A program made the translations under genes and the position numbers. From Felixounavirus NRG857CP1: a stretch of DNA of 64,000 nucleotides. Below are positions 17,638-45,252 of the stretch, piece after piece. A model generated the notes under the pieces. The model saw only the letters and a list, made by a program, of their open reading frames with translations. It did not search any database and was not told the DNA's origin. The DNA lies in the sequence record OZ035806.1, one strand, 5' to 3'. Every line of letters begins with the position of its first letter. Position 1 is the first letter of the stretch.

Positions 17638-18131
17638 AGATTAAAGGATTTGGCAATTGCCCTACCTACGGTCATTGGGTATCTTTATGTGGGGAAGTTG
17701 ACCCCACTAAACATTTTGGCTTTGTCTATTTAGTGCACTGTAAGAAGACTGGACAATATTATATCGGAAAGAAACAGTTTAACAGTGTGACCAAAAGAAA
17801 AGTTGCTGGGAAGACTCGGAAGAAGATAGTCACTAAGGAAAGTGATTGGATGACTTATGAGACTTCTTCTGAGTATATTAAAAAAGATATTGAGAGTTTT
17901 GGAAAAGAATTTTTTGACTTTTACATTATTCAGACCTACTACACAAAAGGTGGCCTAGTCTATGGTGAAGCAAACCTTCAACATAAATTCGATGTAATGA
18001 CAAAAAGGATTGACTCTAAGCTCAGACTCTTCTACAATGCCAATATTGCAGCAATTAAGTTTATCACTAAAGAAACTTATGAAGATGCTGAAAAAAGAAT
18101 CCATAAGGTAATGAAAGCAAATTGTGCTTGA
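17634..18131 (+). CDS. GIY-YIG-like nuclease (possible homing endonuclease)
   Basis: FVYLVHCKKTGQYYIGKK resembles the GIY..YIG motif. Confidence 0.4.
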   Translation: MKIKGFGNCPTYGHWVSLCGEVDPTKHFGFVYLVHCKKTGQYYIGKKQFNSVTKRKVAGKTRKKIVTKESDWMTYETSSEYIKKDIESFGKEFFDFYIIQTYYTKGGLVYGEANLQHKFDVMTKRIDSKLRLFYNANIAAIKFITKETYEDAEKRIHKVMKANCA

Positions 18132-18137
18132 TAACTA

Positions 18138-18401
18138 TTGAGAGAGAATAAAATGTTTAACAAAAGTAAAGCTGTGAGTCATGTAGCAAAAGTTGACAGC
18201 AAGATTGAAGAACTTGAGCGCATCCTTGCAAATGCTAGAGAGTCAATAATTAAAGAAGTTGAAGCTGTTGAGTCTCAAATGCAGCACCTAATGCTTAAAC
18301 GTCAAGAGCTACGTGAACATCTAGAATATATTGAAACACGAGAGCTAAAGGTTAACAAATATTTTAAGGAGTCCGAATGTTTAACTCAAGAGAATCAGTA
18401 A
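18138..18401 (+). CDS. hypothetical coiled-coil protein
   Basis: 87 aa ORF with AGAGAATAAA RBS region. Confidence 0.35.
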   Translation: MRENKMFNKSKAVSHVAKVDSKIEELERILANARESIIKEVEAVESQMQHLMLKRQELREHLEYIETRELKVNKYFKESECLTQENQ

Positions 18402-19132
18402 AAAACTGGAACCTTCGTTGTGGAAACACTCAAAAGCAACCTTACAGTGATGAGTATTGGGAATCTTTAAAATCTCAATCTCTGTGTATGCTTGAAGAAG
18501 CAAAAGAGCTTGTAAAAGCAATTGAAGAGAAAGACCCCATTGAGACACTGGATGCTCAGGCAGATTTGCAATATGTTCTTGACGGTTTGATTTATCTGTC
18601 ACAACATGACCATAACGGTGCTATGAAAGCTGTTTGCCATAATAATGACCTGAAGTACACAGATAACTATGAAGAAGCTTTAAAACGTCTTGCAGACATT
18701 GAAAAGCGTACTGGTCAAGAGTGTATTATCAGAATGTCAGTAGTTGATGGTAAAGAGTGGTATGCTATTGTTCGTGCAGCCGATGGGAAGATTATGAAGC
18801 AATCAAATCTCCCTAAAGTACAGCTTGGTGAATACATTGTAGAACTTGAAAGCCAAGAACTTTTTGTGGTAGTATCTGAGACATGCGTTATTTGCAAAGG
18901 TATTGTAGGTAGCTTAAAGGATTTGGGTGTAGATGGTTTTGTAGAAGTTAATCCAATTACCTCTAAAGCAGATAAAGACTTCTGTAAAGAGAACGGACTA
19001 TGGATTGCAGATATTGTCTACTATGATGGTGAGCAGTTCCATGTAACCTCATACCCGAAACTGAATTATGATGCTAATAACCTGAAGTGCTGGTTAAAAG
19101 GGGTTGGTTATAATGGATTCACAGAACATTAA
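18377..19132 (+). CDS. hypothetical protein
   Basis: 251 aa ORF. Confidence 0.4.
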   Translation: MFNSRESVKNWNLRCGNTQKQPYSDEYWESLKSQSLCMLEEAKELVKAIEEKDPIETLDAQADLQYVLDGLIYLSQHDHNGAMKAVCHNNDLKYTDNYEEALKRLADIEKRTGQECIIRMSVVDGKEWYAIVRAADGKIMKQSNLPKVQLGEYIVELESQELFVVVSETCVICKGIVGSLKDLGVDGFVEVNPITSKADKDFCKENGLWIADIVYYDGEQFHVTSYPKLNYDANNLKCWLKGVGYNGFTEH

Positions 19133-23917: not shown

Positions 23918-26062
23918 ATGAACAAAGTACAGATTATTAAAAAGAATGGCTCACTTGAAGAACCTGATATCAAAAAAGTTTTAGCAGCAGTCACAAAATC
24001 AGCTAACAGAGTTGGTTATAAAGAGCTTCCACCAGATGTTACTCAAGCTCTTGAGTCAGCATTTATGAGGATTCTGGTAAAGTCCACTAAGCAGAATAAT
24101 TTGCTAATTTCGGTAAATGATATTCACAGTATTGTTGAGGGTGCTTTGGCAGAAGTCAATCACGAGATTTATGAGTCTTACTCAACATATAGAAATTACC
24201 GTAAAGAAGTTGCTCAAAATTGGGATGAACTCTACCAGAAGACTAAAGATACACTCTTCTTAGGTGACCGTGAAAATGCTAACTTTGACAGTAGTTTAAT
24301 TTCTACAAAAGGTTCAATTATTCGTGGTTATCTGACTAAAGAAATCTTTAAACAGTACCATTTAACACCAGAGGAACTGGAAGCCATTGAAAAAGGATTT
24401 ATCTATATCCATGATTTAAGAGACCTGATTTTTGGTGGTATCAACTGTTGCCTGTTTGACATTGGTAAAGTCCTGAAAGGTGGCTTTGAAATGTCTGGCA
24501 TCGAATATTGTGAACCAAAGTCTGTGCTGTCGGCCTTACAGGTTATTGGTGACGTAGTTCTTTCAGCAACTGCACAACAATTTGGTGGCTTTACTTTAGC
24601 AGAGATTGATAAGGTACTTGTACCGTATGCTAAGAAGTCTCTACGCTATCATGCTGAGAAAGCAGCATCTTATGGTATTCCTAAAGAACATTACCACAAT
24701 TATGTCATGGAGCAGCTACAGATTGAACTGACTCAAGGTTTCCAGTCACTTGAAATGAAACTAAACACTGTACCTTGTAGCCGTGGGGATTTTGCATTCA
24801 CAACTTTGACATTCGGGTTACTTGACTCAGATATGTCCAATGAAGATAACCGACTGCAATATATGATTGCAAGTACCCTCCTAGATGTTCGTATGAATGG
24901 TCAAGGTAAGAGCAAGAAACCTGTTGTATTCCCTAAACTGGTTTATATTTATGACCAGAAGAGACATGATGAAAATATCTGTCAAAGTCACCTGTACAGT
25001 AAAGCTATTGAGTGTTGCTCTAAAGCAATGTATCCAGACTTCTTAAGTGTATCTGGTCATGGTGCTGTAGCAGAGGCTTTTGAGCGTTCTGGCAAGGTTA
25101 TTTCGCCGATGGGTTGCCGAGCGTTCTTATCTCCGTATCTTAACGAGAATGGGGAAGAGTTCTACGTTGGTCGTGCTAACATTGGTGCTGTATCTTTGAA
25201 CTTACCAATGATTTACCAGTATTCTAAAGAGAATGGTTTAGATTTCTGGAAAGAGCTTGATAAGTACCTAGAGATGATTCGTAGTTTCCACAAGAAACGT
25301 TACGAAATGATTGCTAATATGCCAGCAAGTTCTAACCCTCTTGCATTTACACAAGGTGGTCTGTACAAAGGAACTAAGAAGCCTACTGACAAGGTTGGTT
25401 GGGATATTGTGAAGTCCTTCACAGCTTCTTTTGGTGTTACTGCGCTTGATGAGCTATCTGTTCTTGCTGAAGGTAAACGACTTCATGAAGTTGGAAGCTG
25501 TAGTTTTGCATACGATGTTCTGGCATACATCAACATGAAAACTGAAGAGTTTAAAAATGAAGATGGCTTCTTATATGCCGTCTATGGTACTCCAGCAGAA
25601 TCACTTTGCGGAACTCAGTTAAAACAGTTCAGAGATATGTTTGGCGTTATCAAAGGTGTTTCTGATAAGGAATACTTTACAAACAGTTTCCATATGAATG
25701 TTGCAGCAGACATCTCACCATTTAAGAAGCAGGACTTAGAAGAGCCATTCTTCCATATCTGTAGAGGTGGTAGAATCCAGTATGTCAGGGTAGCTAATCC
25801 AGAAAACTTAACAGCACTTAAAAGTTGTATTACCAGAGGGATGTTGAAAGGTTTCTATCAGGGGCTTAACTTTGACTTAGCAATCTGTGAACATTGTGGT
25901 AACAGACCAAAGGCTGATGTTGAAGAATGTGAGGTTTGTCATTCACACGATATCTCTGTGATTAACAGGGTGTGCGGGTACTTGTCATTCACAAAAATTA
26001 AAGGTCAGTCTCGAATGAATGACGCTAAGATGGCAGAAATTAAGGATAGGGTTTCTATGTAG
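23918..26062 (+). CDS. nrdD: anaerobic ribonucleoside-triphosphate reductase
   Basis: 714 aa; C-terminal zinc site CEHCG..CEVCH and glycyl-radical motif RVCGYLS. Confidence 0.9.
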   Translation: MNKVQIIKKNGSLEEPDIKKVLAAVTKSANRVGYKELPPDVTQALESAFMRILVKSTKQNNLLISVNDIHSIVEGALAEVNHEIYESYSTYRNYRKEVAQNWDELYQKTKDTLFLGDRENANFDSSLISTKGSIIRGYLTKEIFKQYHLTPEELEAIEKGFIYIHDLRDLIFGGINCCLFDIGKVLKGGFEMSGIEYCEPKSVLSALQVIGDVVLSATAQQFGGFTLAEIDKVLVPYAKKSLRYHAEKAASYGIPKEHYHNYVMEQLQIELTQGFQSLEMKLNTVPCSRGDFAFTTLTFGLLDSDMSNEDNRLQYMIASTLLDVRMNGQGKSKKPVVFPKLVYIYDQKRHDENICQSHLYSKAIECCSKAMYPDFLSVSGHGAVAEAFERSGKVISPMGCRAFLSPYLNENGEEFYVGRANIGAVSLNLPMIYQYSKENGLDFWKELDKYLEMIRSFHKKRYEMIANMPASSNPLAFTQGGLYKGTKKPTDKVGWDIVKSFTASFGVTALDELSVLAEGKRLHEVGSCSFAYDVLAYINMKTEEFKNEDGFLYAVYGTPAESLCGTQLKQFRDMFGVIKGVSDKEYFTNSFHMNVAADISPFKKQDLEEPFFHICRGGRIQYVRVANPENLTALKSCITRGMLKGFYQGLNFDLAICEHCGNRPKADVEECEVCHSHDISVINRVCGYLSFTKIKGQSRMNDAKMAEIKDRVSM

Positions 26063-26069
26063 AATACAA

Positions 26070-26633
26070 ATGAATTACGAACTAATATATAATGCAATTA
26101 TTAAAAAGGCACATTCTGAAAGGGGTGTGCCTCTCACATACTACAAATGTCAAGGTAAGGGTTATGAAAGACACCATATCATACCAGTATGTCTAGGTGG
26201 CGATAAAATTAGTGGAGATAACATTGCTTTACTTACACCTAGAGAGCATTATATAGCTCATAAATTACTGGTTAAGATGTATCCAAACAATCATAAGTTA
26301 TGGTTTGCATGGAGCAGGTTAGCTCATGATGGCCTAGATAGGAAAATATCATCCAGAGACTATGAAAAGGTAAGGGCTTTAAACTCGAAAGCTCTATCGA
26401 TTGTGAATAAAGGTAGGGTTTTCACTGAAGAGCATCGAAGACGATTAGGAGAAGCTCAAATAGGTAATACAAAGTCAAAAGGTTGTAAAAGGTCTATGGA
26501 AACAAGGAAGAAGATGTCAGAAGCCGGAAAAAAGCCAAAGAAAAAGAAAACTTGCCCGCATTGTGGCATGACTGGTGGTGCTGGTAACATGACTCGATAT
26601 CATTTTGACAATTGTAAGAAAAAAAAAAAATAA
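26070..26633 (+). CDS. HNH endonuclease inserted between nrdD and nrdG
   Basis: YERHHIIPVCLGGD...NIALLTPREHYIAHK HNH core; C-terminal CPHCG zinc finger; start at Met after nrdD stop. Confidence 0.6.
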   Translation: MNYELIYNAIIKKAHSERGVPLTYYKCQGKGYERHHIIPVCLGGDKISGDNIALLTPREHYIAHKLLVKMYPNNHKLWFAWSRLAHDGLDRKISSRDYEKVRALNSKALSIVNKGRVFTEEHRRRLGEAQIGNTKSKGCKRSMETRKKMSEAGKKPKKKKTCPHCGMTGGAGNMTRYHFDNCKKKKK

Positions 26634-28875: not shown

Positions 28876-28900
28876 ATAGGGGAACTGTAAAGGTTCCCTT
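28876..28900 (+). terminator. intrinsic terminator
   Basis: GGGAAC..GTTCCC + TTTTT. Confidence 0.5.
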
Positions 28901-28917: not shown

Positions 28918-29433
28918 ATGTATCTGTCAAACCTGAAACGTTCGGTTGCAATGTCAGTTCTAAGACTCAGCTTTGATGAGCGTCAAGAATTTATAGACTC
29001 CCACAAATATGACCCTTCAAATTCTAATCACATGGTTCTTTGGAATCGTGATAACTTCCGTGAAAGAGCACTTGTCCGTTATTACCCACACTACACAATA
29101 GATAACCTGTATGAATGGTGTGTTGTGAAGAACACCATTGCAACACTGAACAATCTTTGCAGGTATACGGGTAAGCAAACATTTACACTAGGCCACCACA
29201 AACCTGTTACAAAGGGTGGTGAGCATCACTGTGCAAACTGGTTTATCCAGACTAAACTTGATAACCAGAAGCAAGGAGATAACCTTCTAAGCACACCTAA
29301 GATGACCTATGAAGAGCAAGAGAAATATATCAAAAACAATATGCCAGATGTGCTTGACAACAACTATACAGATTTGGCAATATCTCTCCTGTTGAAGTTC
29401 GAGACAGTTTATAGGGCAACTTACAATGGCTAA
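28918..29433 (+). CDS. hypothetical protein
   Basis: 171 aa ORF. Confidence 0.4.
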   Translation: MYLSNLKRSVAMSVLRLSFDERQEFIDSHKYDPSNSNHMVLWNRDNFRERALVRYYPHYTIDNLYEWCVVKNTIATLNNLCRYTGKQTFTLGHHKPVTKGGEHHCANWFIQTKLDNQKQGDNLLSTPKMTYEEQEKYIKNNMPDVLDNNYTDLAISLLLKFETVYRATYNG

Positions 29434-29704
29434 AGAAAAGTGGGAGATTTTACCATTAGTCAGTGAAGGTGGTAATGGTTGTGAGATGTACATGATACGT
29501 GGTCATGTCCCAGAGCCAATTGCACTTGAGATGGTAAACAACTTTACAGATGGTTCTTACAAAGACTTAGGCGAACCAACTGTCAAGCAACAATGGGTTA
29601 AACCTGTACCAGACAGCACAGGTAACTGTAGTGTACTTTATCACGTTGTAGACCCTGCAAAATGCAAATCTGCAATGGCAGTAACAAACGTAACTTTTGA
29701 TTGA
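29426..29704 (+). CDS. hypothetical protein
   Basis: 92 aa ORF. Confidence 0.35.
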   Translation: MAKEKWEILPLVSEGGNGCEMYMIRGHVPEPIALEMVNNFTDGSYKDLGEPTVKQQWVKPVPDSTGNCSVLYHVVDPAKCKSAMAVTNVTFD

Positions 29705-29715: not shown

Positions 29716-30597
29716 ATGAAAACATCTATCCGTGTTACAGTTCATTCACCAACTAAAGGGACTCATGAAGAAGAGTTTAACATCATCCAATTTCCTTCTG
29801 GTGAGATTGGTGGACACTTTTCGCCAGAGTTTGTTGATTTCACTGCTTATGCAGCATCATCCATCAACAATGTGATTATGATTGTAAAAGGTTATGATAA
29901 GGACACATTGTTTGCTGTGGCACTTGCTAAAGAAGCAATTGATGATTTAATTCCTCATGATTATGCTTTAAAGACTGTCATCTTTTACTACTTACCAAAT
30001 GCACGATATGACCGTCACATGTTTAAAGGCGACGCAGCAGCTTTAAAGGTTTTTGCTAAACAGGTAAATGCAATGGGATTTGGTGCAGTCTGTGCAGTTG
30101 ACCCTCACAGTTACGTTCCAGATAACCTGTTTAACTGCTTCCAGAGTATTCCTCAAAAGGAGATTGCAGTCCACTATGCAAATGACCCACTGGTTGATTA
30201 CTTAGTAGCCCCAGATGCAGGTGCTGCTAAGAAGGTTGCAGAGACAGCTAAAGAGGTGGATAAACCATATATCACAATGTCTAAGGTGCGTAACCTTAAG
30301 ACTGGTGAAATTACTGGTATGCGAATCCTTGATGATGTTGATTTGACAGATAAAACCGTCATGATTCTGGATGATATCTGTGATGGTGGTCGAACCTTCA
30401 TAGAAGCAGCTAGACATCTTCGTGAAGCAGGTGCAAAACGTGTGGAACTCTATGTAACACATGGTATCTTCTCTAAAGATGTTGAAAACCTTCTTGACAA
30501 TGGCATTGACCACATCTACACTACAAACTCTTTAGGGGAAGCTAAAGACCGTGGCTTAACACATTATGGTCAAGTTACTGTAGCAAACCTTGATTAA
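29716..30597 (+). CDS. ribose-phosphate pyrophosphokinase (PRPP synthetase)-like enzyme; candidate ADPR-pyrophosphate synthetase of NARP1
   Basis: phosphoribosyltransferase-type motif VMILDDICDGGRTF; PRPP-synthetase-like length; start at Met with GAGAGA RBS. Confidence 0.75.
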   Translation: MKTSIRVTVHSPTKGTHEEEFNIIQFPSGEIGGHFSPEFVDFTAYAASSINNVIMIVKGYDKDTLFAVALAKEAIDDLIPHDYALKTVIFYYLPNARYDRHMFKGDAAALKVFAKQVNAMGFGAVCAVDPHSYVPDNLFNCFQSIPQKEIAVHYANDPLVDYLVAPDAGAAKKVAETAKEVDKPYITMSKVRNLKTGEITGMRILDDVDLTDKTVMILDDICDGGRTFIEAARHLREAGAKRVELYVTHGIFSKDVENLLDNGIDHIYTTNSLGEAKDRGLTHYGQVTVANLD

Positions 30598-30606
30598 AAC
30601 TTTATA

Positions 30607-30630
30607 GGGGCTTAAAAGCCCCATTTTGAG
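30607..30630 (+). terminator. hairpin between the two NAD-pathway genes
   Basis: GGGGCTT-AAA-AGCCCC. Confidence 0.4.
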
Positions 30631-30642
30631 AGAGATTAAAAG

Positions 30643-32424
30643 ATGACTAAATCACTTTATGCAGTACCAGCAGGTTTAAACGCAGATGCTTACAAATCTG
30701 GTCACATTTACCAGTATCCTAGTGCAACAGAATACTTGATGTTCAACCTGACACCACGTAGTGATAAATGGTTTAACAGCCCTTTAGCAATTGACGGTGT
30801 AGTGGCTTTTGGTATTCAACGTTTTGTTAAAGATTACTTGATAGACCACTGGAATGCCACTTTCTTTGAACGTGATAAAAAAGAAGCCATTGATGAAATC
30901 TTAGAAGTCATGAATGGTGTTCTGGGTAAAGATGCTATCGGTCGAGAGCATTGGGAAGCACTTCACGACTTAGGTTATCTACCAGTTGAAGTATACGCTG
31001 TAGAAGAAGGCACAGTTGTTCCAATGCGTGTCCCGATGATTGTCTTTCAGAACACTGTTTCAGGTTTTCATTGGGTAGCAGGTTATCTGGAAGATGCTTT
31101 CTCTGCTGAAATTTGGAAGGCTTGCACCATTGCAACTATTGCATTGCATTACAAACGCATCTGTAAGAAGTGGGCTGAACTTACTTGTGACAATGACTTA
31201 CATTTACCTTATCAGTGCCATGATTTTGCTATGCGTGGTATGTCCGGCTTTACTGATGACGCATTTAACGCTGTAGGCCACTTAACCAGCTTTAAAGGAA
31301 CTGATAGCTTCCCTGCTGTGTATACGGCTAAACGAATCTATGGACAGCCTTACCCAATCTCTGATATTGGTAGCTCTGTACCAGCCACTGAGCACTCTGT
31401 AATGTGTGCAAACATTGCTTGGGAAGGTGGTAATGAGTTGATTGAAGAAGAAAGACGCTTTAAAGGTGAGTTACAAACCTTCCGTCGCTTCTTAACAGAA
31501 ACTTACCCAACTGGTATTGCAAGTGTTGTTTCAGACACTTATAACTTCTGGAGAACTGTGTCAGAAATTTTACCAGCACTTCGTAAAGAAATTATGGAAC
31601 GTGATGGCAAACTGGTAATTCGTCCTGACTCTGGAGACCCTGTACATATTGTCACAGGTTATAAAGCAATCCACTTAGAATGTGCTAAGAAGGCTTATTA
31701 TGAACATCTTAGCAAGCTGGAAGCTAGTGATACAATGCTAAGCTCTGTCCTGAACATGAAGCTTGAAAACATCAACTATGGTATTGCTGGATGGCTACTG
31801 TCAGAAGGCTACGAAATGGTTGTTGACAGAGAAGACTTTGAAGTTGCTGATACAGTGATGTTGAAAAATGCTTATATGGTTGGTTCTGCAAACGTTGTAA
31901 CACGTCCTATAGCTGAGATTGATGGAGCTATTAAGACTCTGTATAACATCTTTGGAGGAACTATTAACTCTAAAGGTTTTAAGGTACTTGATGAGCACAT
32001 TGGCCTTATCTATGGCGACTCTATCACGTTGGAACGTGCAAACGAAATCCTGAAGCGTCTGTATGAAATGGGTTTTGCAAGCTCTAACGTAGTTTTTGGT
32101 GTAGGTTCTTACACTTATCAGTACATGACTCGTGACACCTTTGCATTTGCTGTTAAAGCAACTCTTGCAAGCATCGGTGGTAAAGAGATTATGCTTGCAA
32201 AAGACCCTAAAACAGATAGTGGTGTTAAGAAATCTGCCTTTGGTGGTGTAGCACCTATGTGGGATGGTGATAAGCTGAAAGCTGTAGATGGCTACGGATT
32301 CCAGAGTTTTGCAGATGTACTTGACCACCCAGCTTGTGCTTTACGTTTAGTCTTTAGTGACTCTGAGCAGTTTGGTTACACAACTCTTGGTGATATTCGA
32401 AATAATATTGACAAGCAGCTTTAA
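30643..32424 (+). CDS. nicotinamide phosphoribosyltransferase (NAMPT/NadV)-like enzyme; candidate NARP1 nicotinamide ADPR transferase
   Basis: 593 aa; NAMPT-like from the N-terminus onward (reading-based call, no alignment run). Confidence 0.8.
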   Translation: MTKSLYAVPAGLNADAYKSGHIYQYPSATEYLMFNLTPRSDKWFNSPLAIDGVVAFGIQRFVKDYLIDHWNATFFERDKKEAIDEILEVMNGVLGKDAIGREHWEALHDLGYLPVEVYAVEEGTVVPMRVPMIVFQNTVSGFHWVAGYLEDAFSAEIWKACTIATIALHYKRICKKWAELTCDNDLHLPYQCHDFAMRGMSGFTDDAFNAVGHLTSFKGTDSFPAVYTAKRIYGQPYPISDIGSSVPATEHSVMCANIAWEGGNELIEEERRFKGELQTFRRFLTETYPTGIASVVSDTYNFWRTVSEILPALRKEIMERDGKLVIRPDSGDPVHIVTGYKAIHLECAKKAYYEHLSKLEASDTMLSSVLNMKLENINYGIAGWLLSEGYEMVVDREDFEVADTVMLKNAYMVGSANVVTRPIAEIDGAIKTLYNIFGGTINSKGFKVLDEHIGLIYGDSITLERANEILKRLYEMGFASSNVVFGVGSYTYQYMTRDTFAFAVKATLASIGGKEIMLAKDPKTDSGVKKSAFGGVAPMWDGDKLKAVDGYGFQSFADVLDHPACALRLVFSDSEQFGYTTLGDIRNNIDKQL

Positions 32425-32437
32425 AAGTATATGATAA

Positions 32438-32462
32438 GAGGCTCCTACGGGAGCCTTTTTAA
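32438..32462 (+). terminator. intrinsic terminator
   Basis: AGGCTCC-TACG-GGAGCCTTTTT. Confidence 0.6.
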
Positions 32463-32477
32463 TTTCTGGAGAAAACT

Positions 32478-32999: not shown

Positions 33000-35366
33000 A
33001 TGCGCATGGTAAACGACCACGCAGAAGTGATTAAGAGTTCAACTTCTTTAGAGACGTCTCAAGCACAGATTACAATGACACCTGAAATGTTCAGCCTTTT
33101 GAGTTCTGGTGTATATACCTTTAAAGAAAGGGCAGTGATTCGTGAACTGTCATGTAACGCAGTAGATGCTCAGAAAGAAGCTGGAAAAGAGAATATCCCG
33201 TTCCATGTGCATTTACCTACTCGTTTTGAGCCTTACTTTGAAGTCCGTGATTTTGGAACTGGATTGACTCATGATAAAGTTATGAGTTTGTACCTAAACT
33301 ACGGGGCTTCTACGAAGAATGACTCTAATGATTACATTGGTGCAATGGGTATCGGCTCAAAATCTCCATTTGCAATTGCTCAGTCATTCACAGTATCTAG
33401 CTATGTTGACGGTGTTGTTAATAAGTACTCAGTTTACCTTGAGAATGGTATCCCTCAAGTAACTAAGCTTACTACCAACCCAACAAAGGAACCTAATGGC
33501 TTAGCTGTACGTGTAGCAGTTGCTGACCATCGTATCTCAAAATTCTTTGAAGAAGCTGGTCACGTATACTCATACTTTGCTGTAAAACCAGAAAGCAATA
33601 TCGAGTATGACGATGTATTAGCAGATATGAACGTCATTGCCCGTGAAGAAGGTGTTTATGATGCCATGATTCATAAGCAAAGCTGGCGTTCTAGTAGTAA
33701 CAGGACAGAGTTTAATGTGGTGATGGGTAACATTGCATACCCTGTTAACATGGAAGCATTACTTGGTGATGATTTCTTCAAAGTCTTGCCAGAATTTTTC
33801 CGTAGGAGCGTAGACCTTGTAAACATCTACATGCCTATTGGTTCAGTTGCTATTGCAGCTTCTCGTGAAGCATTGCAGATGAATGACACGACAAAAAATG
33901 TTATCATTGAGGCTACTAAAAAGATAACTGAAGCAATTACAAAGGATGTTATCAAGAAAGTTAATAGCCAACCTACACTCATGGATGCTGCACAGGCTTA
34001 TGCTGAGTTACGTTTGAACTCACGAGAGATGTTTAATGCTGTGTGTACAAAGCTAGAGTGGGGAGGTGTTAAGCTTGATTCTCTGGAAGAAGAATTACTA
34101 AACATTCGTCGTGGAATTATCTACGCAGAGGACGGCTCAGTCATCTATGAACGTGACGGCAAAGGTAATATTAAGGTTGACAGTAAAGGAAACAACATTC
34201 CTAAAGTGGACTACCTATACAATCCAGTTGCTTATGTTAAGTTCAACTCTTTAGAGAGTAAGATTCGTGCAACAGCACTTTCCTACACTCAAGAGGCGAG
34301 CATGTTCAATATCTTTGGTGCAATGCGTAAAAGTCAAATTGAACAGTTTTTGTTCGTGATTAATGACCGTCGCAATAAAAACGGTACTGAGAAGACTGTA
34401 GGACGCAATCAAATCTTGCGTGGTGCATGTCGAGATTATGCCAGTGAGTCGAATCTGTTTCACAGATACAATGGTATTGTGTTTGTATTCTCGACTGAAA
34501 AAGAGTTAGATGATTTAATCAATCTACATAAACTTGATAAAAGCTTGTTAAAGATTGTGAAAATGTCTGATAAGGAGCACCATTACCAGCGCAAAGAAGC
34601 TGTAAGGGGTGTTGTAAAACTCTGGAAAGCTGTTCCAGCAGAAGGTGTAGCTTCCTATAAAGAGGTTTCAGAGGACTTTGATACAATTGAAGAACCTCAG
34701 CTTTACATTAAGGCAGTTGGTGACACAGTTGATGGCGAATGTTTTTGCTCATCTCCAGAAGATGTAGCCAAGTCAGTTGCTAATGTTACAGGGAAGACAG
34801 TCTATGTTTTCCGAAAAGCAAATTGGAAAAAGATACCAGAAGACTGGATTGAAGTAGATGAGAAACTCTTGAACGACAGCTTAACTGATGTTCATTGGAT
34901 TAATCATAACAGGTATATGACACGTATCTATATGAATGGTGTCCTTGACCTTACAAGCAGTTGGATTATTGCCAGAAACTTTACGTTCAATAACAGGAAG
35001 ATTTCTCGTGGCTATTGCTATTCACGGGATACAAACAAAACTATCTTCCTAGAAGGAAATGAAGATGCTGTAGAGGCAATGTTCGGTAAAATCCAATACG
35101 TTGCTGCACCATTTGCATACACTTATACTATTAGTGTATTGAAAACTTTGAAAGACTGTCTTGACAATGATACAAAGCTTTACAAGAAAATTAAGAAAGC
35201 TGGTGACCGTATGGTCATTAAGGTGACAAACTACCTTTCAAAAAGAAAACAAGAAAACTTCTTGCTTTCTCATTTAGATTGGAATAAAGTGTCACCCATC
35301 GAAGTGAGTAAGTTCTTAGGCTTTGATGTAAAATGTGTTCCAGAAGGGACTACAATTTATGATTAA
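33000..35366 (+). CDS. rIIA-like protein with GHKL-type ATPase domain
   Basis: N-box RELSCNAVDA, G1 box VRDFGTGL, G2 box GAMGIGSKSPF; size similar to T4 rIIA. Confidence 0.55.
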   Translation: MRMVNDHAEVIKSSTSLETSQAQITMTPEMFSLLSSGVYTFKERAVIRELSCNAVDAQKEAGKENIPFHVHLPTRFEPYFEVRDFGTGLTHDKVMSLYLNYGASTKNDSNDYIGAMGIGSKSPFAIAQSFTVSSYVDGVVNKYSVYLENGIPQVTKLTTNPTKEPNGLAVRVAVADHRISKFFEEAGHVYSYFAVKPESNIEYDDVLADMNVIAREEGVYDAMIHKQSWRSSSNRTEFNVVMGNIAYPVNMEALLGDDFFKVLPEFFRRSVDLVNIYMPIGSVAIAASREALQMNDTTKNVIIEATKKITEAITKDVIKKVNSQPTLMDAAQAYAELRLNSREMFNAVCTKLEWGGVKLDSLEEELLNIRRGIIYAEDGSVIYERDGKGNIKVDSKGNNIPKVDYLYNPVAYVKFNSLESKIRATALSYTQEASMFNIFGAMRKSQIEQFLFVINDRRNKNGTEKTVGRNQILRGACRDYASESNLFHRYNGIVFVFSTEKELDDLINLHKLDKSLLKIVKMSDKEHHYQRKEAVRGVVKLWKAVPAEGVASYKEVSEDFDTIEEPQLYIKAVGDTVDGECFCSSPEDVAKSVANVTGKTVYVFRKANWKKIPEDWIEVDEKLLNDSLTDVHWINHNRYMTRIYMNGVLDLTSSWIIARNFTFNNRKISRGYCYSRDTNKTIFLEGNEDAVEAMFGKIQYVAAPFAYTYTISVLKTLKDCLDNDTKLYKKIKKAGDRMVIKVTNYLSKRKQENFLLSHLDWNKVSPIEVSKFLGFDVKCVPEGTTIYD

Positions 35367-35445: not shown

Positions 35446-36555
35446 ATGACTACTAAAACTAAAGCACAGATTGACGCAGAAATTTACAAACTGGTTAAAG
35501 AGGGCAAGCTGACTAAAACCGCTATTGCACAGAAATTTAACACCTCAACCCGTTCAGTCGGTCGTGCTGTAGAGCGTCATGAAGCAACCTTAAAAGGGAA
35601 TAAGAAGGTGACTTCTACACCAGCTACGAAGACTTTGAAGCAAGTTGCCAAGACCTTTAAAAAGAAAGCTGGCAAACCAGTTGAAAAGGTCGTTAAAGAT
35701 GCTGTACAGAAAGCTCCAGTAAATAAACTACATGAAGCTATGCAGAAAGATGACAAGATTGAGTACATGATTACTGGTGACTCTGTAATTATGACTTACG
35801 GTTCAGAATCTGAAATTGTTGAGTCTACTCATCCGAACTATCAAGAGATTGTAGTTCATGTTGTGAAAGGTGAGTTCAAGAAAGCTTTCGAACTGATGAA
35901 CATTCGTAAGTCTATCGAAAACTTCACTCAGGGTGCTATCACAATCAAAGGTGACAAGTTATTCTACGGTGCTGTTGAGATGCGTTCTACTCTGGTTGAC
36001 CGTATTCTTCACATGATGAAGACTGGAGATAAAGGTTTTGAACGCCTTGTAATGTTCTTTGAAAAACTGATGGAAAACCCATCTAAAGATTCCGTAGAAC
36101 AACTTTGGGGCTTCGTATCTCACCTTGATGTTGAAATTGATGAAGAAGGCTACATCATTGGTTGGAAGAAAGTCTCTACTCGTGAAGGCAAGCTGGTTGA
36201 CTCCCACACCTACAGAGTACCTAATGATTTGGGTAACATTGTAGAAATGCCACGTTGGATGGTTGATAATAACCGTAACGTGACTTGCTCTCAAGGTCTT
36301 CACGTTGGTGCTTGGGATTATGTTCGCTGCTTCTCAGGTGATACAATTCTTAAGGTTCGTGTTCATCCACGAGACGTTGTATCCGTACCAACTGATTACA
36401 ACGATATGAAGATGCGTTCATCACGTTATGAAGTTGCAGCAATCGTTGATAATCAACGTAAAGTACTGAAAGCATGGGATGGTAAGACTGAAGCTTTACA
36501 TGTCATCGTTGGTACTGCTGGTGAACTTATCTCTCAGCGTAAACGTGAAAGCTAA
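35446..36555 (+). CDS. possible rIIB-like partner protein
   Basis: 369 aa gene immediately downstream of rIIA-like gene; position-based guess only. Confidence 0.3.
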   Translation: MTTKTKAQIDAEIYKLVKEGKLTKTAIAQKFNTSTRSVGRAVERHEATLKGNKKVTSTPATKTLKQVAKTFKKKAGKPVEKVVKDAVQKAPVNKLHEAMQKDDKIEYMITGDSVIMTYGSESEIVESTHPNYQEIVVHVVKGEFKKAFELMNIRKSIENFTQGAITIKGDKLFYGAVEMRSTLVDRILHMMKTGDKGFERLVMFFEKLMENPSKDSVEQLWGFVSHLDVEIDEEGYIIGWKKVSTREGKLVDSHTYRVPNDLGNIVEMPRWMVDNNRNVTCSQGLHVGAWDYVRCFSGDTILKVRVHPRDVVSVPTDYNDMKMRSSRYEVAAIVDNQRKVLKAWDGKTEALHVIVGTAGELISQRKRES

Positions 36556-39905: not shown

Positions 39906-40691
39906 ATGGGTATTGTAAAAATCATCAATGGTGATATCTTTGCTGCATTTGATAAAGGTAAGTTTGACATCATTGGTCATGGTTGTAACTGCATGAACCT
40001 AATGGGCGCAGGTATCGCTGACAAGATTTCTAAACTTTACCCAAAAGCATATGAGACCGATACAGAAGTTTATCTCTATGCAGGTGGTATAGGTCACAAA
40101 CCCTGTGAGAATTTACTAGGTAATTTCTCTGTAGCACGCTTAAAACAAGGTCGTATAGCTAACCTTTACACTCAGCTTAAGACTGGTAAAGATGCCCGAT
40201 ACAGTGCTTTAGAGTCATCTTTGAAACAGCTTAACAGATACTGTGAAGTCAATCAGTTGAAGAAAGTTGGTTTACCTATGATTGGTGTAGGTATCGGTGG
40301 ACTTGACCCTCAAGCCGTCACAGTTATCATCAATCAGGTGATGAAGAGTGTAGATGTTTATCTATATGTCTATGAAGGAGAGATGTACCACAAGTTACTC
40401 TCAGGTTGGAAGAACTACTGTGAACCAGAATACTTTGCAGGTGTAGCAGTGTTCACAGATAACGCAGTTACCCTCTTCAGACGAAGAAAAGGTAAGATAC
40501 ATCAAAGTAACCCTCCGGTTGAAAAGATGTCTCTAAGTAACGCTCTAGTTACCCACCTGTCAAAGAGCAATCACAGAATTGCTGTAACATTTGGTAGTGA
40601 TGCAGAAGCTTATATCTATGCAAGAACTGATGAGGATATTGAGGCAATCTTCTCTTCACCAGAAGTTACCTTCTTAGACGCAAAGAACTAA
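39906..40691 (+). CDS. macro-domain (ADP-ribose binding/processing) protein
   Basis: N-terminal INGDIF...IIGHGCNCMNLMGAGIADKI resembles macro-domain Gly-rich ADP-ribose pocket. Confidence 0.5.
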   Translation: MGIVKIINGDIFAAFDKGKFDIIGHGCNCMNLMGAGIADKISKLYPKAYETDTEVYLYAGGIGHKPCENLLGNFSVARLKQGRIANLYTQLKTGKDARYSALESSLKQLNRYCEVNQLKKVGLPMIGVGIGGLDPQAVTVIINQVMKSVDVYLYVYEGEMYHKLLSGWKNYCEPEYFAGVAVFTDNAVTLFRRRKGKIHQSNPPVEKMSLSNALVTHLSKSNHRIAVTFGSDAEAYIYARTDEDIEAIFSSPEVTFLDAKN

Positions 40692-41010: not shown

Positions 41011-41119
41011 AAAAATTTGTAGCGGATTGAAAAATAATTCTTGATTTGCGTTCTGTTTTGTGGTAGTCGTGCGCACCCGTTTCATTACAGTTTTGCCAAA
41101 AATATTTTTAAAATTTTTA

Positions 41120-41211
41120 TTGACTCTTTGAACGTGGTTATCTAATATTTACATCAACGGGGAGGGAATGACCTTTCCCACTAAATAAAATCCTAAACTG
41201 GAGATTCAAAA
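41120..41211 (+). promoter_or_regulatory. class I early promoter-hairpin-RBS cassette
   Basis: TTGACT-17-TAATAT then CAACGGGGAGGGAATGACCTTTCCCACTAA hairpin and TAAACTGGAGATTCAAAAATG. Confidence 0.55.
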
Positions 41212-41400
41212 ATGGCATCAAGAAAAATTAAAGTTGGCGATGAGGTTAACATTAAGCACGAATACTCTTACAAAATGCTAACTATACGCTCTTATAAGGT
41301 TTATCAGGTGGAAGCTATCCACAAAGATAATACTTTTTCCTTAAAAGGGTATAGCGAACGTTTCCCTGCTGAACTCTTTGAGAAATGGAGCGCGAAATAA
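41212..41400 (+). CDS. small early-type protein
   Basis: 62 aa; preceded by class I cassette. Confidence 0.45.
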   Translation: MASRKIKVGDEVNIKHEYSYKMLTIRSYKVYQVEAIHKDNTFSLKGYSERFPAELFEKWSAK

Positions 41401-41606
41401 TGCTTTACAGTCGTGAATTGATGGTTACAACTAACGTTAACACAAAGGTAAAACGTTTTTACATGCAAATTTGTGGCGTATGGTCTAGAATATCAGAAGC
41501 TGACTATTGCAACTATGTAGAAACAGCTATAAACTCTAATTGCTACCTTACAAGAAATACTAAGAATTTTACAAGGCAAACAGCGATTTACTATTACGAT
41601 AAATAA
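41385..41606 (+). CDS. small hypothetical protein
   Basis: 73 aa; overlaps upstream gene; alternative Met at 41400. Confidence 0.35.
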   Translation: MEREIMLYSRELMVTTNVNTKVKRFYMQICGVWSRISEADYCNYVETAINSNCYLTRNTKNFTRQTAIYYYDK

Positions 41607-41696
41607 AAAGTACTTTACATGGGGCTTATAGTTCGATAAAGTAAGCCCCAGATAAAGAGCTTTACCAAATTAACCCTTAAACTAGGAGATTCAAAA
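41607..41696 (+). promoter_or_regulatory. class II promoter cassette with inverted repeat spanning the -10 region
   Basis: TTTACA-17-TAAAGT embedded in GGGGCTTA..TAAGCCCC, then AGATAAAGAGCTTTACC and TAAACTAGGAGATTCAAAAATG. Confidence 0.55.
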
Positions 41697-42077
41697 ATGG
41701 CATATCGTGCACCTAAATTCATCAACAAAGACAACTTTCGCAACGCACTGGAGAAGTCACTTGATGAAAATTTTAAAGGCAACATTATCGTTGTTCACGC
41801 ATTCAATTTTAAGTATGATGTAAACGGGAATAGAATCAACCATTACACGGCAACCATGTTAGATGGCACACTATCAAGTGAAAAAGCTGTACTGAATGCA
41901 CTTGCTGGACGTGGTAAAAACCTGATAAAATGCGATAAGAGACGTTATCAGGGTGGCGCATATGGTTATGATGATGCTATTTATCATCTTGAAAATATGG
42001 GCTATCAAGTAGAAAAAGCTGGAGCATCACAAATCATCGGCAGTGACGGCTATGTGACAATTTTCAAAATTAACTGA
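41697..42077 (+). CDS. small early-type protein
   Basis: 126 aa; preceded by class II cassette. Confidence 0.45.
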   Translation: MAYRAPKFINKDNFRNALEKSLDENFKGNIIVVHAFNFKYDVNGNRINHYTATMLDGTLSSEKAVLNALAGRGKNLIKCDKRRYQGGAYGYDDAIYHLENMGYQVEKAGASQIIGSDGYVTIFKIN

Positions 42078-42079
42078 TA

Positions 42080-42172
42080 AAGTACTTTACAAGGGGCTTA
42101 AAAGTTGGTATCTTAAGCCCCAGATAAAGAGCTTTACCACTAAATCAAGTCCTTAAACTAGGAGATTCAAAA
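42080..42172 (+). promoter_or_regulatory. class II promoter cassette
   Basis: TTTACA..GGGGCTTAAAAGTTGGTATCTTAAGCCCC..AGATAAAGAGCTTTACC..AGGAGATTCAAAAATG. Confidence 0.55.
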
Positions 42173-42685
42173 ATGAAAACTGTAGACGCTACCTTTGAAG
42201 TTGTAAAAGAAAAATTTTCCATCATTTACGAAGCTGTTAATTGCTACGAAGCAAGCCATAACCTTGATAATTGGGAATTTACAGATGACCATCAAGGCGG
42301 TGTGACTGTTAAAAATCCTAACTATCAGCATAATGCATTTAAATATGCAATCCCTTTGCATTACAGCCTTAAACAGCTTTCTAGTGACTATGCAAAACAA
42401 GGCCGGGAAAATCCATCAAAAGAGGCTTACGCAAGCTTACAGAAAGAACTAGAAAGAGATTTAGAGGCTTCAGAGTACAACCTTGCCGCGAAAGTTGTGG
42501 ATGCAAACGGTAACACGGTTTTAGAAAGTTTTTATCTTGGTTATGCTTTCGATTGGTGCTATCGTGACGGCGATGATTTAGAGGATAGACTAAAAGAAGA
42601 GGTGAACAATTCAGACGCAGAATCTGAAGTATTAGAACGTTTGGAATCACTAAAAGATTCAGTGATGAATATCTTTAAGAACTAA
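42173..42685 (+). CDS. early-type acidic protein
   Basis: 170 aa; preceded by class II cassette. Confidence 0.45.
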   Translation: MKTVDATFEVVKEKFSIIYEAVNCYEASHNLDNWEFTDDHQGGVTVKNPNYQHNAFKYAIPLHYSLKQLSSDYAKQGRENPSKEAYASLQKELERDLEASEYNLAAKVVDANGNTVLESFYLGYAFDWCYRDGDDLEDRLKEEVNNSDAESEVLERLESLKDSVMNIFKN

Positions 42686-42687
42686 AT

Positions 42688-42777
42688 AGATTTCTTTACA
42701 CGGGGTTATCAAGCTGGTAGGATAGCCCCAGATAAAGAGATTTATCAAATAAAGTCCTTAAACTAGGAGATTCTAAA
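42688..42777 (+). promoter_or_regulatory. class II promoter cassette (diverged copy)
   Basis: TTTACACGGGGTTATC..GGATAGCCCCAGATAAAGAGATTTATC..AGGAGATTCTAAAATG. Confidence 0.5.
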
Positions 42778-43074
42778 ATGAAATTATCAAATCAAGTGCG
42801 TGAAAATCTAAGCAAATTACTCAACAAAATTGATTTCATTGAAACATCAAGGAATAGTCATGATGTTATGGAATGGTTACACGGCAAAATAAAAGGCCGT
42901 CGTGTAGTGATTTGCTTATGGAACAGTTGCAGGGAGTATAAAAAACCTGTATTGCAAGTTAATATCTATGATGATACTTTTAAAAGTCCTGTAAAGTCTG
43001 AAAGTGATTTACTAGATTCTTATGAGATAACTGTAAATGGCAAAGTGTCACGTAAAGAGGAAGCACTATGTTAA
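42778..43074 (+). CDS. small early-type protein
   Basis: 98 aa; preceded by class II cassette. Confidence 0.45.
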   Translation: MKLSNQVRENLSKLLNKIDFIETSRNSHDVMEWLHGKIKGRRVVICLWNSCREYKKPVLQVNIYDDTFKSPVKSESDLLDSYEITVNGKVSRKEEALC

Positions 43075-43400
43075 TGATGGGTATCACTGCAATCATTGCT
43101 ATTATGGCGCTATATAAGGCGTACAGCGCCTACAATCTGGCAAGTAAGGCAATCACGCAACAGGTCAATAATAGCCTTGTAATGAGTTTTCTGGAGCGTT
43201 TAAGTGATGAACAAATAAAACGGTTAGAAATGAGCTTCAGATTTCAATCAAAAACTTATCAAATCAGCGACATTTTCAAAGATAATTTTCAGCTTGTCGA
43301 TGATTATAACTCTCTGATAAATGCTTTAAATATCAGCGACTTAAAAGACTATTACACTATAATTGTCCAAGAACTGAACAAACGAAAAAATTTCTCTTGA
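43068..43400 (+). CDS. small protein with N-terminal hydrophobic helix
   Basis: 110 aa; MLMMGITAIIAIMALY; overlaps upstream gene by 7 nt. Confidence 0.4.
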   Translation: MLMMGITAIIAIMALYKAYSAYNLASKAITQQVNNSLVMSFLERLSDEQIKRLEMSFRFQSKTYQISDIFKDNFQLVDDYNSLINALNISDLKDYYTIIVQELNKRKNFS

Positions 43401-43404
43401 TTTT

Positions 43405-43490
43405 AGTTTTAAAAACAAGTAAATTACTAATCAACGGGGAGGGAATGACCTTCCCCACTAAGTAAAGTCCTTAAACTAGGAGATTCAAAA
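43405..43490 (+). promoter_or_regulatory. class I promoter-hairpin-RBS cassette
   Basis: GTAAATTACTAATCAACGGGGAGGGAATGACCTTCCCCACTAAGTAAA..AGGAGATTCAAAAATG. Confidence 0.55.
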
Positions 43491-43763
43491 ATGTACACTA
43501 CTAACAACGGTCGCACCTTAAACGTAACCCTACGCCACTATGTGAACGGTGTAATGCACTTCGAGGATTTACAAGCTGAGCAACATATCTTAGATTGGCA
43601 AGTAGCAGGACTCCAAAAAACTGCTACGGGATACGGTAAAAAGATTCCAACCAGTTGGAAAGTACACTACGAAGGACGTTTGCGCAGAATTTATCAGGAT
43701 GTGCAAAGCAATAGCGCATCGAGTTACATTATAGTAAAAGGCAAAAAACTGCATTTAATGTAA
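43491..43763 (+). CDS. small early-type protein
   Basis: 90 aa; preceded by class I cassette. Confidence 0.45.
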   Translation: MYTTNNGRTLNVTLRHYVNGVMHFEDLQAEQHILDWQVAGLQKTATGYGKKIPTSWKVHYEGRLRRIYQDVQSNSASSYIIVKGKKLHLM

Positions 43764-43849
43764 AGTACTTTACATGGGGCTTGGAAGTTGATATCTTAAG
43801 CCCCAGATAAAGAGCTTTACCACTCAATCCTAAATTGGAGAACTTAAAA
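43764..43849 (+). promoter_or_regulatory. class II promoter cassette
   Basis: TTTACATGGGGCTTGGAAGTTGATATCTTAAGCCCCAGATAAAGAGCTTTACC. Confidence 0.55.
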
Positions 43850-44254
43850 ATGGCTATTAATAACCGTGAATTATCAATGTTAAAAGCACGTTTGACCGTT
43901 AATCGAATCAACATTATGACATCATCAGCGCCTGATGAGACATTGCACAACATTATCGGAAAGATTCAAAGCGTTATTTTAGACGTTGAAAACGTAAAAA
44001 GTTCATTGGCTGACGTTGCAGCAGGTATCACGCTAGACGGTGCGCAATATGAAATGTCCGACATGTTAGGCAAATCAAAGGTAATGAATAAAGAGCTTGA
44101 TTTAAAGATGTTCCGATTTGCTGTTAAAGTATGGCTATCCGTCGAGTATGACGCTAATTTTGCAATCGCTGATTTCTTTGCCACTTGGTTACAACGTAAT
44201 TTGACAAATCACGATTTTCGTGATGTCTGTGATGCAATTTATGCAGAACTCTAA
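43850..44254 (+). CDS. small early-type protein
   Basis: start set at Met after GGAGAACTTAAAA RBS (track ORF begins 43835). Confidence 0.45.
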   Translation: MAINNRELSMLKARLTVNRINIMTSSAPDETLHNIIGKIQSVILDVENVKSSLADVAAGITLDGAQYEMSDMLGKSKVMNKELDLKMFRFAVKVWLSVEYDANFAIADFFATWLQRNLTNHDFRDVCDAIYAEL

Positions 44255-44262
44255 AAAATTTT

Positions 44263-44355
44263 GTTGACACTGGTTTTTAGATAGATTAAATTACACATCA
44301 ACGGGGAGGGAATGACCTTCCCCACTAAATAAAGTCCTAAACTGGAGATTCTAAA
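44263..44355 (+). promoter_or_regulatory. class I promoter-hairpin-RBS cassette
   Basis: TTGACA-17-TAAATT, then CAACGGGGAGGGAATGACCTTCCCCACTAAATAAA..GGAGATTCTAAAATG. Confidence 0.6.
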
Positions 44356-44559
44356 ATGGCTATTATTAACGGTTTAACCATTGAAACTACACACATCAAA
44401 GATATCAAAGTTGGCGATATAGTCCTTTCCCACGGCGTAGAAAAAACTGTCACTGCAAAGGATATCAAAGAGGATTCTTTCATGGGTAGGACTCTTTTCG
44501 GTGATTCTTATTGCTTAGGTTACCTTGCAGTTTTAAAAGTTGTCAAAAATAACAAATAA
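44356..44559 (+). CDS. small early-type protein
   Basis: 67 aa; preceded by class I cassette. Confidence 0.45.
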   Translation: MAIINGLTIETTHIKDIKVGDIVLSHGVEKTVTAKDIKEDSFMGRTLFGDSYCLGYLAVLKVVKNNK

Positions 44560-44561
44560 AG

Positions 44562-45186: not shown

Positions 45187-45212
45187 AAACCTATGCAATC
45201 ACCTTATAAACA

Positions 45213-45238: not shown

Positions 45239-45252
45239 AGAGGGCTTAAATC

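Follow-up and report, generated by a model that had tools for sequence, protein, structure and literature searches.

The subject of this study is a pair of genes at positions 29716–32424 of a 64,000-nucleotide stretch of DNA, hereafter the window, taken from sequence record OZ035806.1 of Felixounavirus NRG857CP1. This interval contains exactly two open reading frames (ORFs), both on the plus strand, co-directional and separated by 45 nt. The first gene, adps, encodes a protein with the fold of phosphoribosyl pyrophosphate (PRPP) synthetases, matched by the Pfam families PF00156 (Pribosyltran, 2.9e-12) and PF14572 (Pribosyl_synth, 4.1e-10), by PHROG 619 (5e-96) and by NCBIfam TIGR01251 (2.5e-35). 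Its start is ATG at 29716, and an in-frame TTG at 29701 is also possible; ATG is preferred because it is preceded by a Shine-Dalgarno-like purine tract, GAGAGAGA, and because the genes of the related phage Bas63 and of other relatives are annotated from ATG. The product of the second gene, namat, is an enzyme of the nicotinamide phosphoribosyltransferase (NAMPT) fold, with matches to PF04095 (NAPRTase, 6.4e-35), PF18127 (NAMPT_N), PHROG 448 (9e-202) and NCBIfam PRK09198 (1.9e-140). The initial annotation of this DNA had described two adjacent co-directional genes, PRPP-synthetase-like and NAMPT-like, with a phosphoribosyltransferase-type motif in the first, and both observations proved correct. 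The motif is VMILDDICDGGRTF; the ribose-binding residues D219 and D220 lie within it, as does the donor-site loop C222–T227.

Judging by its relatives, the window evidently belongs to a Felixounavirus, a Felix O1-like phage of E. coli. A 3.5-kb query around the gene pair matched 258 phage records, nearly all of them from Felix O1-like phages of Escherichia, Salmonella, Shigella and Citrobacter, and one of these matches, OZ035796.1 (Felixounavirus NRG857CP1), had 100% identity to the query. The BASEL phage Bas63 (JohannRWettstein, accession MZ501086; PMC11482910), whose record also places it in Felixounavirus, is collinear with the window along a stretch exceeding 45 kb, with about 89–96% nucleotide identity. 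Both phages have the same locus, in which NrdG (identified with Pfam) and four small genes are followed by Adps, Namat and then rIIA/rIIB (identified with PHROG), and the proteins neighbouring the pair are 90–99% identical to their Bas63 counterparts. Adps shares 229 of its 293 residues (78%) with Bas63 gp79, and Namat shares 583 of 593 (98%) with Bas63 gp80, the lengths being equal in both cases.

It was in Bas63 genes 79–80 that the nicotinamide adenine dinucleotide (NAD+) reconstitution pathway NARP1 was discovered (bioRxiv 10.1101/2024.02.11.579819); the pathway makes NAD+ anew from ADP-ribose and nicotinamide and thereby lets a phage withstand bacterial defences that deplete NAD+. The pair is an already known system and belongs to the type lineage of the published NARP1. 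The existence of both genes, their orthology and synteny with those of Bas63, the purifying selection acting on them and their diagnostic signatures are direct observations on the window pair. A literature search pairing Felixounavirus with NARP1 found no paper. Having recognized the NARP1 architecture correctly, the initial annotation overrated the novelty of the pair by calling it a candidate, because this is a textbook case whose Bas63 counterparts are the founding example. The features of the locus are collected in Table 1.

Table 1. Features of the NARP1 locus and of associated genes in the window
Feature	Position	Strand	Basis
Terminator-like hairpin closing the upstream unit, 9-bp stem, T-run	28878-28900	+	Terminator scan; RNAfold -12.1 kcal/mol; conserved in Bas63
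gp77-like gene	28918-29433	+	Bas63 synteny
gp78-like gene	29426-29704	+	Bas63 synteny
adps: ADP-ribose pyrophosphate synthetase (putative), PRPP-synthetase fold, 293 aa	29716-30597	+	Profiles, Bas63 orthology
Adps N-terminal domain, codons 1-180, deeply diverged allele	29716-30255	+	Identity and synonymous divergence vs Bas63
PRPP-type / PP-loop motif VMILDDICDGGRTF, aa 215-228	30358-30399	+	Alignment to ICP1 Adps and E. coli Prs
Spacer stem-loop GGGGCT-TAAA-AGCCCC, then ATTTTG	30607-30622	+	Fold; 6-bp GC-rich stem
namat: nicotinamide ADP-ribose transferase (putative), NAMPT fold, 593 aa	30643-32424	+	Profiles, PDB match, Bas63 orthology
Selectivity-clamp loop PRSDKWF, aa 38-44	30754-30774	+	Alignment to SPbetaL1 Namat
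Namat insertion of ~85 aa, aa 343-427	31669-31923	+	HMMER match split 5-342 / 428-586
Selectivity-clamp helix GSYTYQYMTRD, aa 488-498	32104-32136	+	Alignment, published consensus
Intrinsic-terminator-like hairpin, 10-bp stem, 5 GC pairs, T-run	32436-32459	+	RNAfold -16.6 kcal/mol; identical in Bas63
Macro-domain protein, 261 aa, candidate accessory gene, Adpp family	39906-40691	+	PF01661 3.7e-7; PHROG 335 'phosphatase' 4e-112

In our opinion, the pair is very probably a NARP1 module, orthologous to Bas63 genes 79–80 and working as in phages Bas63, SPbetaL1 and ICP1. The chemistry and the anti-defence phenotype proposed for it are carried over from these orthologs and homologs. By this analogy, Adps would convert ADP-ribose (ADPR) together with ATP to ADPR pyrophosphate (ADPR-PP) and AMP, and Namat would replace the pyrophosphate with nicotinamide, giving NAD+ and free pyrophosphate. 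NAD+ would be regenerated directly, without a nicotinamide mononucleotide (NMN) intermediate and without host salvage enzymes. The pathway should be active only upon accumulation of ADPR, which would make it cheap in undefended hosts.

The corresponding experiments were carried out with relatives. Deletion of the gene pair in Bas63 decreased plating on SIR2-HerA about 20-fold and led to a collapse of NAD+, and ADPR-PP (m/z 720.01) appeared only if the Bas63 genes and the defence system were present together (bioRxiv 10.1101/2024.02.11.579819). In an independent knockout screen of Bas63, the drop in plating was 1e4–1e6 (PMC11482910). The initial annotation had listed Thoeris, DSR, SIR2-type systems and some CBASS effectors as targets; activity was demonstrated in the NARP1 paper against type I Thoeris, DSR1/2, SIR2-HerA and SEFIR, but CBASS variants were only predicted there.

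Prs and Adps, as well as Nampt and Namat, can be partly separated from sequence because structure-derived signatures have been published (PMC12774641, PMC13586617). The earlier statement that sequence alone cannot distinguish PRPP synthesis from ADPR pyrophosphorylation is accordingly true only in part: the published signatures of both enzymes can be looked for, and they are present. The best match of Namat in the Protein Data Bank (PDB) was 9W5W/9W5X (E 7e-128, 431 bits), i.e., the NAD+ (9W5W) and nicotinamide (9W5X) complexes of Namat from Bacillus phage SPbetaL1 (PMC12774641). Below it were the Nampt of Xanthomonas (Xcc; 1e-52, 182 bits) and mammalian NAMPTs, including the human enzyme (about 1e-40, 144 bits).

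The adenine 'selectivity clamp' of Namat consists of two elements, a selectivity-clamp helix (SCH) and a selectivity-clamp loop (SCL), and the SCH has a consensus, GSX-Phi-X-Phi-X-Phi-TRD, that occurs only in Namat (PMC12774641). In the window protein this consensus is found at G488–D498, with Y490 and Y494 as the predicted adenine-stacking aromatics and with Met at the third Phi position, usually occupied by Asn or Val. The segment reads GSYTYQYMTRD in the window and GSFTYQYNTRD in SPbetaL1 Namat, whereas the same position of a true Nampt, that of Xanthomonas, is GGALLQKVDRD. According to the rule published for the SCL, adenine is stacked upon either by Arg at position 3 or by the residue that follows Lys/Tyr, Bas63 Namat being an example of the Lys type (PMC12774641). 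The window sequence S40-D41-K42-W43 is the same as in Bas63; K42 is aligned with SPbetaL1 R40, and W43 is predicted to stack on adenine. The catalytic core is intact, F195, R198, D221, H251, R327 and D329 corresponding to F189, R192, D215, the catalytic His, R306 and D308 of SPbetaL1 Namat. The insertion of about 85 residues was found only in Ounavirinae-type records (n=253, tblastn) and has no counterpart in SPbetaL1 Namat or in any Nampt. It is compatible with activity, because the functionally validated Bas63 gp80 has it too.

Adps is 32% identical to the Adps of phage ICP1 and 24% identical to E. coli Prs, and its scores against the NCBIfam Prs equivalogs are far below the cut-offs (NF002095, 104 bits vs 296; NF002320, 90 vs 297). 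These data suggest that it belongs to the phage Adps clade and not to cellular Prs. Crystal and cryo-EM structures of ICP1 Adps (UniProt F1D1Q1) with ADPR/ATP and ADPR-PP/AMP are available; in this enzyme K185, the catalytic beta-hairpin lysine, is essential, R87, H121, D161, D212 and D213 are acceptor residues, and the adenine-stacking Phe is supplied by the neighbouring protomer (PMC13586617). In a refined alignment, window Adps keeps 10 of the 11 functional positions defined in ICP1, namely F18 (F26 in the window), R87 (R97), H121 (H131), D161 (D167), K185 (K190), D212/D213 (D219/D220), C215 (C222), D216 (D223) and F221 (F228). The eleventh, ICP1 F92, is replaced by M102, and Met is also present in the Bas63 Adps validated in vivo. 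An apparent loss of the adenine-stacking Phe, with ICP1 F18 placed opposite Thr16 by the first MAFFT alignment, was rejected: L-INS-i with Achelous Adps added gives F26, which is located in QFPSGE, a match to the PRPS 'flag' motif RFSDGE.

Loss of the C-terminal alpha11-alpha12 module of PRPS was termed "a defining evolutionary signature" of Adps (PMC13586617). By alignment, this module is absent from window Adps, which ends with VTVANLD and leaves the E. coli Prs tail, EAIRRISNEESISAMFEH, unmatched. The PP loops are DDICDGGRTF in the window, DDICDGAASF in ICP1, DDISDGGASF in Achelous and DDMIDTGGTL in E. coli Prs, so that the Asp-Gly step is common to the window protein and the other Adps, and Prs has Asp-Thr-Gly; the published rule for this loop was checked only loosely. 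In a PDB search with Adps, all matches were canonical and archaeal PRPP synthetases. The set searched did not contain the ICP1 Adps structures, so that Adps and Prs are not distinguishable by solved structures here.

These results may be compared with canonical salvage, in which a true PRPP synthetase and a true Nampt/NadV would make NMN, to be converted by host NadR/NadD into NAD+ for general phage metabolism. The names given to the orthologs in all public records, 'ribose-phosphate pyrophosphokinase' and 'nicotinamide phosphoribosyltransferase', agree with such a route, as do the scores of Adps against TIGR01251, a subfamily-level model (121.9 against a cut-off of 113), and of Namat against PRK09198 (468.7 against 405), and Namat retains PRPP-dependent NMN synthesis in vitro. 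However, the counter-defence of Bas63 against SIR2-HerA persists in a host lacking both pncC and nadR, and NAD+ was the sole product when Namat was offered ADPR-PP and PRPP together (bioRxiv 10.1101/2024.02.11.579819); the SPbetaL1 homolog made ADPR-PP and no product of the PRPP-synthetase type. The window proteins point in the same direction. Namat has the adenine clamp, which is absent from Nampts, and Adps has neither the equivalog score nor the C-terminal filament/allosteric module of class I PRPP synthetases, falling below all Prs equivalog cut-offs. In addition, prs is already encoded by E. coli. Canonical salvage is thus a highly improbable explanation, and the comparison with cellular enzymes proposed in the initial annotation ends with Namat nearest, among solved structures, to SPbetaL1 Namat and Adps outside the Prs equivalogs.

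In a route of the NARP2 or NARP3 type, the partner of the NAMPT-like enzyme would be a phage NMN adenylyltransferase, as in KVP40, or NadR/PnuC encoded elsewhere in the genome; NARP3 consists of a PnuC-like transporter and a NadR-like bifunctional enzyme (PMC13464706). About 20% of phage Namat/Nampt homologs form a separate clade partnered by Nmnat, and the 64-kb window does not cover the whole genome. Nevertheless, a Pfam survey of the 48 window ORFs revealed no CTP_transf_like (NMN adenylyltransferase), NadR, PnuC or Nudix domain, which bears out the earlier remark that no NMN adenylyltransferase gene is seen nearby, and the annotation of the 49 kb of Bas63 examined contains no Nmnat, NadR, PnuC or Nudix protein. 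Within the window, neither the NARP2 set (Nampt with Nmnat or Nmnat-Nudix) nor the NARP3 set was found. The adjacent Adps gene defines the NARP1 clade, and the SCH signature is that of a Namat. With these data, a NARP2- or NARP3-type route is scarcely credible, and NARP1 remains the preferred reading.

The two hairpins at 28878–28900 and 32436–32459, the latter a strong one beginning 12 nt past the Namat stop codon, are suggestive of the borders of a four-gene unit consisting of the gp77-like and gp78-like genes, Adps and Namat. Adps and Namat appear to be the last genes of this short transcription unit, which would be closed by the second hairpin. In the scans with promoter and terminator consensuses, 9 terminator-like sites were counted in the window vs 9.2 in shuffles, i.e., there was no enrichment. 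A motif preceding two hairpins, TATAGGGG, occurred 4 times vs 0.76 expected, but 1 of 100 shuffles also reached 4, and it was set aside as too weak. Directly after the Namat terminator, Bas63 carries a further gene of 345 nt, bas63_0081, which is missing from the window, where positions 32425–32477 represent a small indel hotspot.

The spacer between the two genes (30598–30642) contains a stem conserved in Bas63 with one change in the loop. It failed the criteria of the terminator scan and is possibly a leaky terminator or an element of mRNA stability. A similar hairpin core was observed elsewhere in the window, in the repeated intergenic cassette families at 41110–46761, which are present in 4–6 copies of 43–104 nt located 5' of small ORFs. 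The elements of these cassettes follow in the order of a TTTACA-like box, the hairpin GGGGCTT...AAGCCCC, AGATAAAGAGCTTTAC and CCTTAAACTAGGAGATTCAAAAATG (ribosome-binding site and start codon), and they resemble promoter/leader modules reiterated in an array of early genes.

In Felix O1 and phage ekra, the spacer between Adps and Namat is filled with an HNH (T7 gp3.8-like) homing-endonuclease gene, which makes this junction a homing site; homing there may drive local mosaicism. The window itself has free-standing homing-endonuclease genes at 7022–7573 (minus strand), 17113–17637, 17634–18131, 26019–26633 and 59702–60094 (all plus strand), their types being HNH-AP2, HNH_3, SegE-like GIY-YIG, NUMOD3 and one weak HNH. 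Their placement differs between the two phages: in Bas63 one lies within nrdD, and in the window one follows nrdD and two follow the exonuclease gene.

A deeply diverged part of the locus is the N-terminal domain of Adps. It shows 68% amino acid and about 61–80% nucleotide identity to Bas63, with flanks at 91–99%, whereas codons 181–293 are 95% identical at the amino acid level. Synonymous divergence (dS) relative to Bas63 is 1.84 in the N-terminal half of Adps, 0.39 in the C-terminal half and 0.20 in Namat. The corresponding ratios of nonsynonymous to synonymous divergence (omega) are 0.125, 0.07 and 0.04, and both Adps and Namat are under purifying selection. These values indicate that Adps is a mosaic protein, the N-domain of which appears to be a recombinant second allele. 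The domain is dimorphic among 252 Ounavirinae records: in 155 of them it is at least 90% identical to that of the window, in 97 the identity is 60–80%, and there is nothing between. The second class contains Felix O1, Bas63, ekra, Mooglevirus and Suspvirus. The window-type domain is hence the majority form in Ounavirinae, and Bas63 carries the minority one.

It might be supposed that the window-type N-domain differs functionally from the allele of Bas63 and Felix O1, in acceptor range, oligomerisation, regulation or escape from an Adps-targeting host factor, the module then being NARP1-like and not equivalent to that of Bas63. The strict dimorphism without intermediates and the contrast in dS between the N-domain and the rest of the pair are compatible with this idea. 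The window N-domain is also less similar to that of Felix O1 (71%) than the Mooglevirus domain is (76%), and Adps and rIIB are the two most divergent proteins of the neighbourhood relative to Bas63. At the same time, the five Adps alleles compared do not differ at any of the 11 mapped substrate and catalytic positions, an omega of 0.125 means ordinary purifying and not diversifying selection, and an intact Namat accompanies the window-type allele in every case. Furthermore, recombination mosaicism is commonplace in these phages, and homing-endonuclease genes are situated at the same locus in relatives. A functional difference is very unlikely. From the identity of the mapped residues in the five alleles and from purifying selection we infer that the window-type Adps has the same activity as the studied orthologs; no direct test of this allele was found in the literature.

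Several points weigh against the assignment to NARP1 and should be considered together. Synthesis of NMN from PRPP is a further in vitro activity of Namat enzymes (PMC12774641; bioRxiv 10.1101/2024.02.11.579819), and by analogy some canonical NMN-forming activity of window Namat is conceivable. The PP loop of window Adps, CDGGRT, differs from CDGAAS of ICP1. The N-domain, which would contribute the hexamer core and the adenine-binding residues, is that part of Adps where identity to the tested Bas63 protein is lowest. The in vitro work was done with the SPbetaL1 and ICP1 homologs, and Bas63 Adps itself was never purified (bioRxiv 10.1101/2024.02.11.579819; PMC13586617). Finally, the operon boundaries are only suggestive because the consensus-scan sites are no more frequent than in shuffles.

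An additional component of the pathway may be encoded by the Macro-domain gene, which is not linked to the NARP1 pair, being located 7.5 kb and about ten genes downstream, with rIIA, rIIB, polynucleotide kinase and other genes between. The RES-type defence aRES converts NAD+ into ADPR-1''-phosphate (ADPR-1''-P), which cannot be used by NARP1, and in the variant NARP1-AP, found in 15% of NARP1 operons, the Macro-domain phosphatase Adpp restores ADPR; the survey of this variant was restricted to genes no more than two genes away from the operon (bioRxiv 10.64898/2026.01.28.702374). No Macro-domain Adpp gene lies within that distance of the window pair, the nearest one being at 39906–40691, which does encode an Adpp-family protein.

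The N-terminal 160 residues of this protein are 29% identical (E 1e-14) to gp176 of Achelous, the gene of which stands between Adps and Namat and whose sequence is 98.7% identical to the validated Adpp of Vibrio phage Gary. Homologs of the Macro gene adjoin Namat or Adps in four unrelated phage groups, represented by Achelous, phiPsa374, GEC_PNG3 and Acinetobacter phage phi1_092033; in the Pseudomonas phages phiPsa374 and GEC_PNG3 and in the Acinetobacter phage the neighbour is Namat. Sixteen residues of the motifs do not vary among nine family members, the window protein included, and a C-terminal extension of about 100 residues was seen only in Ounavirinae. It is possible, though somewhat doubtful, that Ounavirinae run a split NARP1-AP, in which the predicted Macro phosphatase would convert ADPR-1''-P to ADPR and feed Adps and Namat. 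The family is also present in T4-like (tk.4) and KVP40-like phages that have no NARP1, and a search of the PDB with the family profile ranked OARD1/BT1257-like macrodomains (about 1e-17) above Poa1p (1e-8), so that ADPR-1''-P phosphatase specificity is not established by sequence. A single-sequence structure model of the protein had a mean pLDDT (predicted local distance difference test score) of 34.9. If the split version is true, Felix O1-like phages would also resist aRES, and Ounavirinae would have been overlooked by the NARP1-AP survey because only Macro genes at most two genes away from the operon entered its counts.

The surroundings of the pair also include genes with relatives of known action. 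The gp77-like protein (28918–29433) is 90.6% identical to Bas63 gp77, and rIIA and rIIB (33000–35366 and 35446–36555) are 98% and 82% identical to those of Bas63. In the knockout screen of Bas63, gp77 countered retron Ec67, and rIIA and rIIB countered QatABCD (PMC11482910). By analogy with these orthologs, the NARP1 pair appears to be located in an anti-defence neighbourhood. Elsewhere in the window, genes for thymidylate synthase, dihydrofolate reductase, DNA ligase, a dNMP kinase and subunits of ribonucleotide reductase were found. A MazG-like nucleotide pyrophosphohydrolase (PF01503; PHROG 2144), encoded at 18377–19132 on the plus strand, could bear on host signalling or defence.

Summarizing the significance of these data, it may be said that about 250 sequenced Felix O1-like phages carry the NAD+ reconstitution pathway, and the window phage is one more of them. 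The practical gain is a corrected annotation, since public records still name the products ribose-phosphate pyrophosphokinase and nicotinamide phosphoribosyltransferase. The phage is predicted to plate on hosts with SIR2-HerA, DSR1/2, type I Thoeris or SEFIR, and this prediction is useful in the selection of phages for therapy or typing. The N-domain allele of Bas63 Adps, the form studied by experiment, is the minority one of its subfamily. The unlinked Adpp-family Macro gene suggests that NARP1-AP capacity, and hence aRES resistance, may exceed the counts based on operons. The new points are small and consist of the diverged majority allele of the Adps N-domain, the Ounavirinae-specific insertion in Namat and the unlinked Macro gene.

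Among known systems, NARP2 of KVP40 (Nampt/NadV and a bifunctional Nmnat) and cellular Prs/NadV salvage have the same folds and the same end product, NAD+, as proposed for the window pair. NARP2, however, starts from PRPP, proceeds via NMN and requires Nmnat, whereas the window has no Nmnat gene, an adjacent Adps and the adenine clamp in Namat. The NARP1-AP of Gary has the gene order Adps, Adpp Macro phosphatase, Namat, and in the window the Macro gene is outside the operon; the two Macro proteins belong to the same family and have the 16 invariant residues in common, but the window protein carries about 100 additional C-terminal residues. ICP1 Adps, like that of the window, is a PRPS-like two-domain enzyme without the alpha11-alpha12 module. 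It differs in overall sequence, in F223, which is Glu in the window, and in having a shorter N-terminal region. SPbetaL1 Namat has a catalytic core identical to that of window Namat, but its SCL is of the Arg40 type and not of the Lys-Trp type, and the window protein has 11 extra residues after the catalytic His region in addition to the 85-residue insertion. The NARP1 of Bas63 agrees with that of the window in genus, genome position, gene lengths (293 and 593 residues), the 45-nt spacer with its conserved hairpin, the Namat terminator, the insertion, both clamp elements and the C-domain of Adps (95%), and it differs from it in the other allele of the Adps N-domain (68% of amino acids, dS 1.84) and in the extra gene bas63_0081 after Namat.

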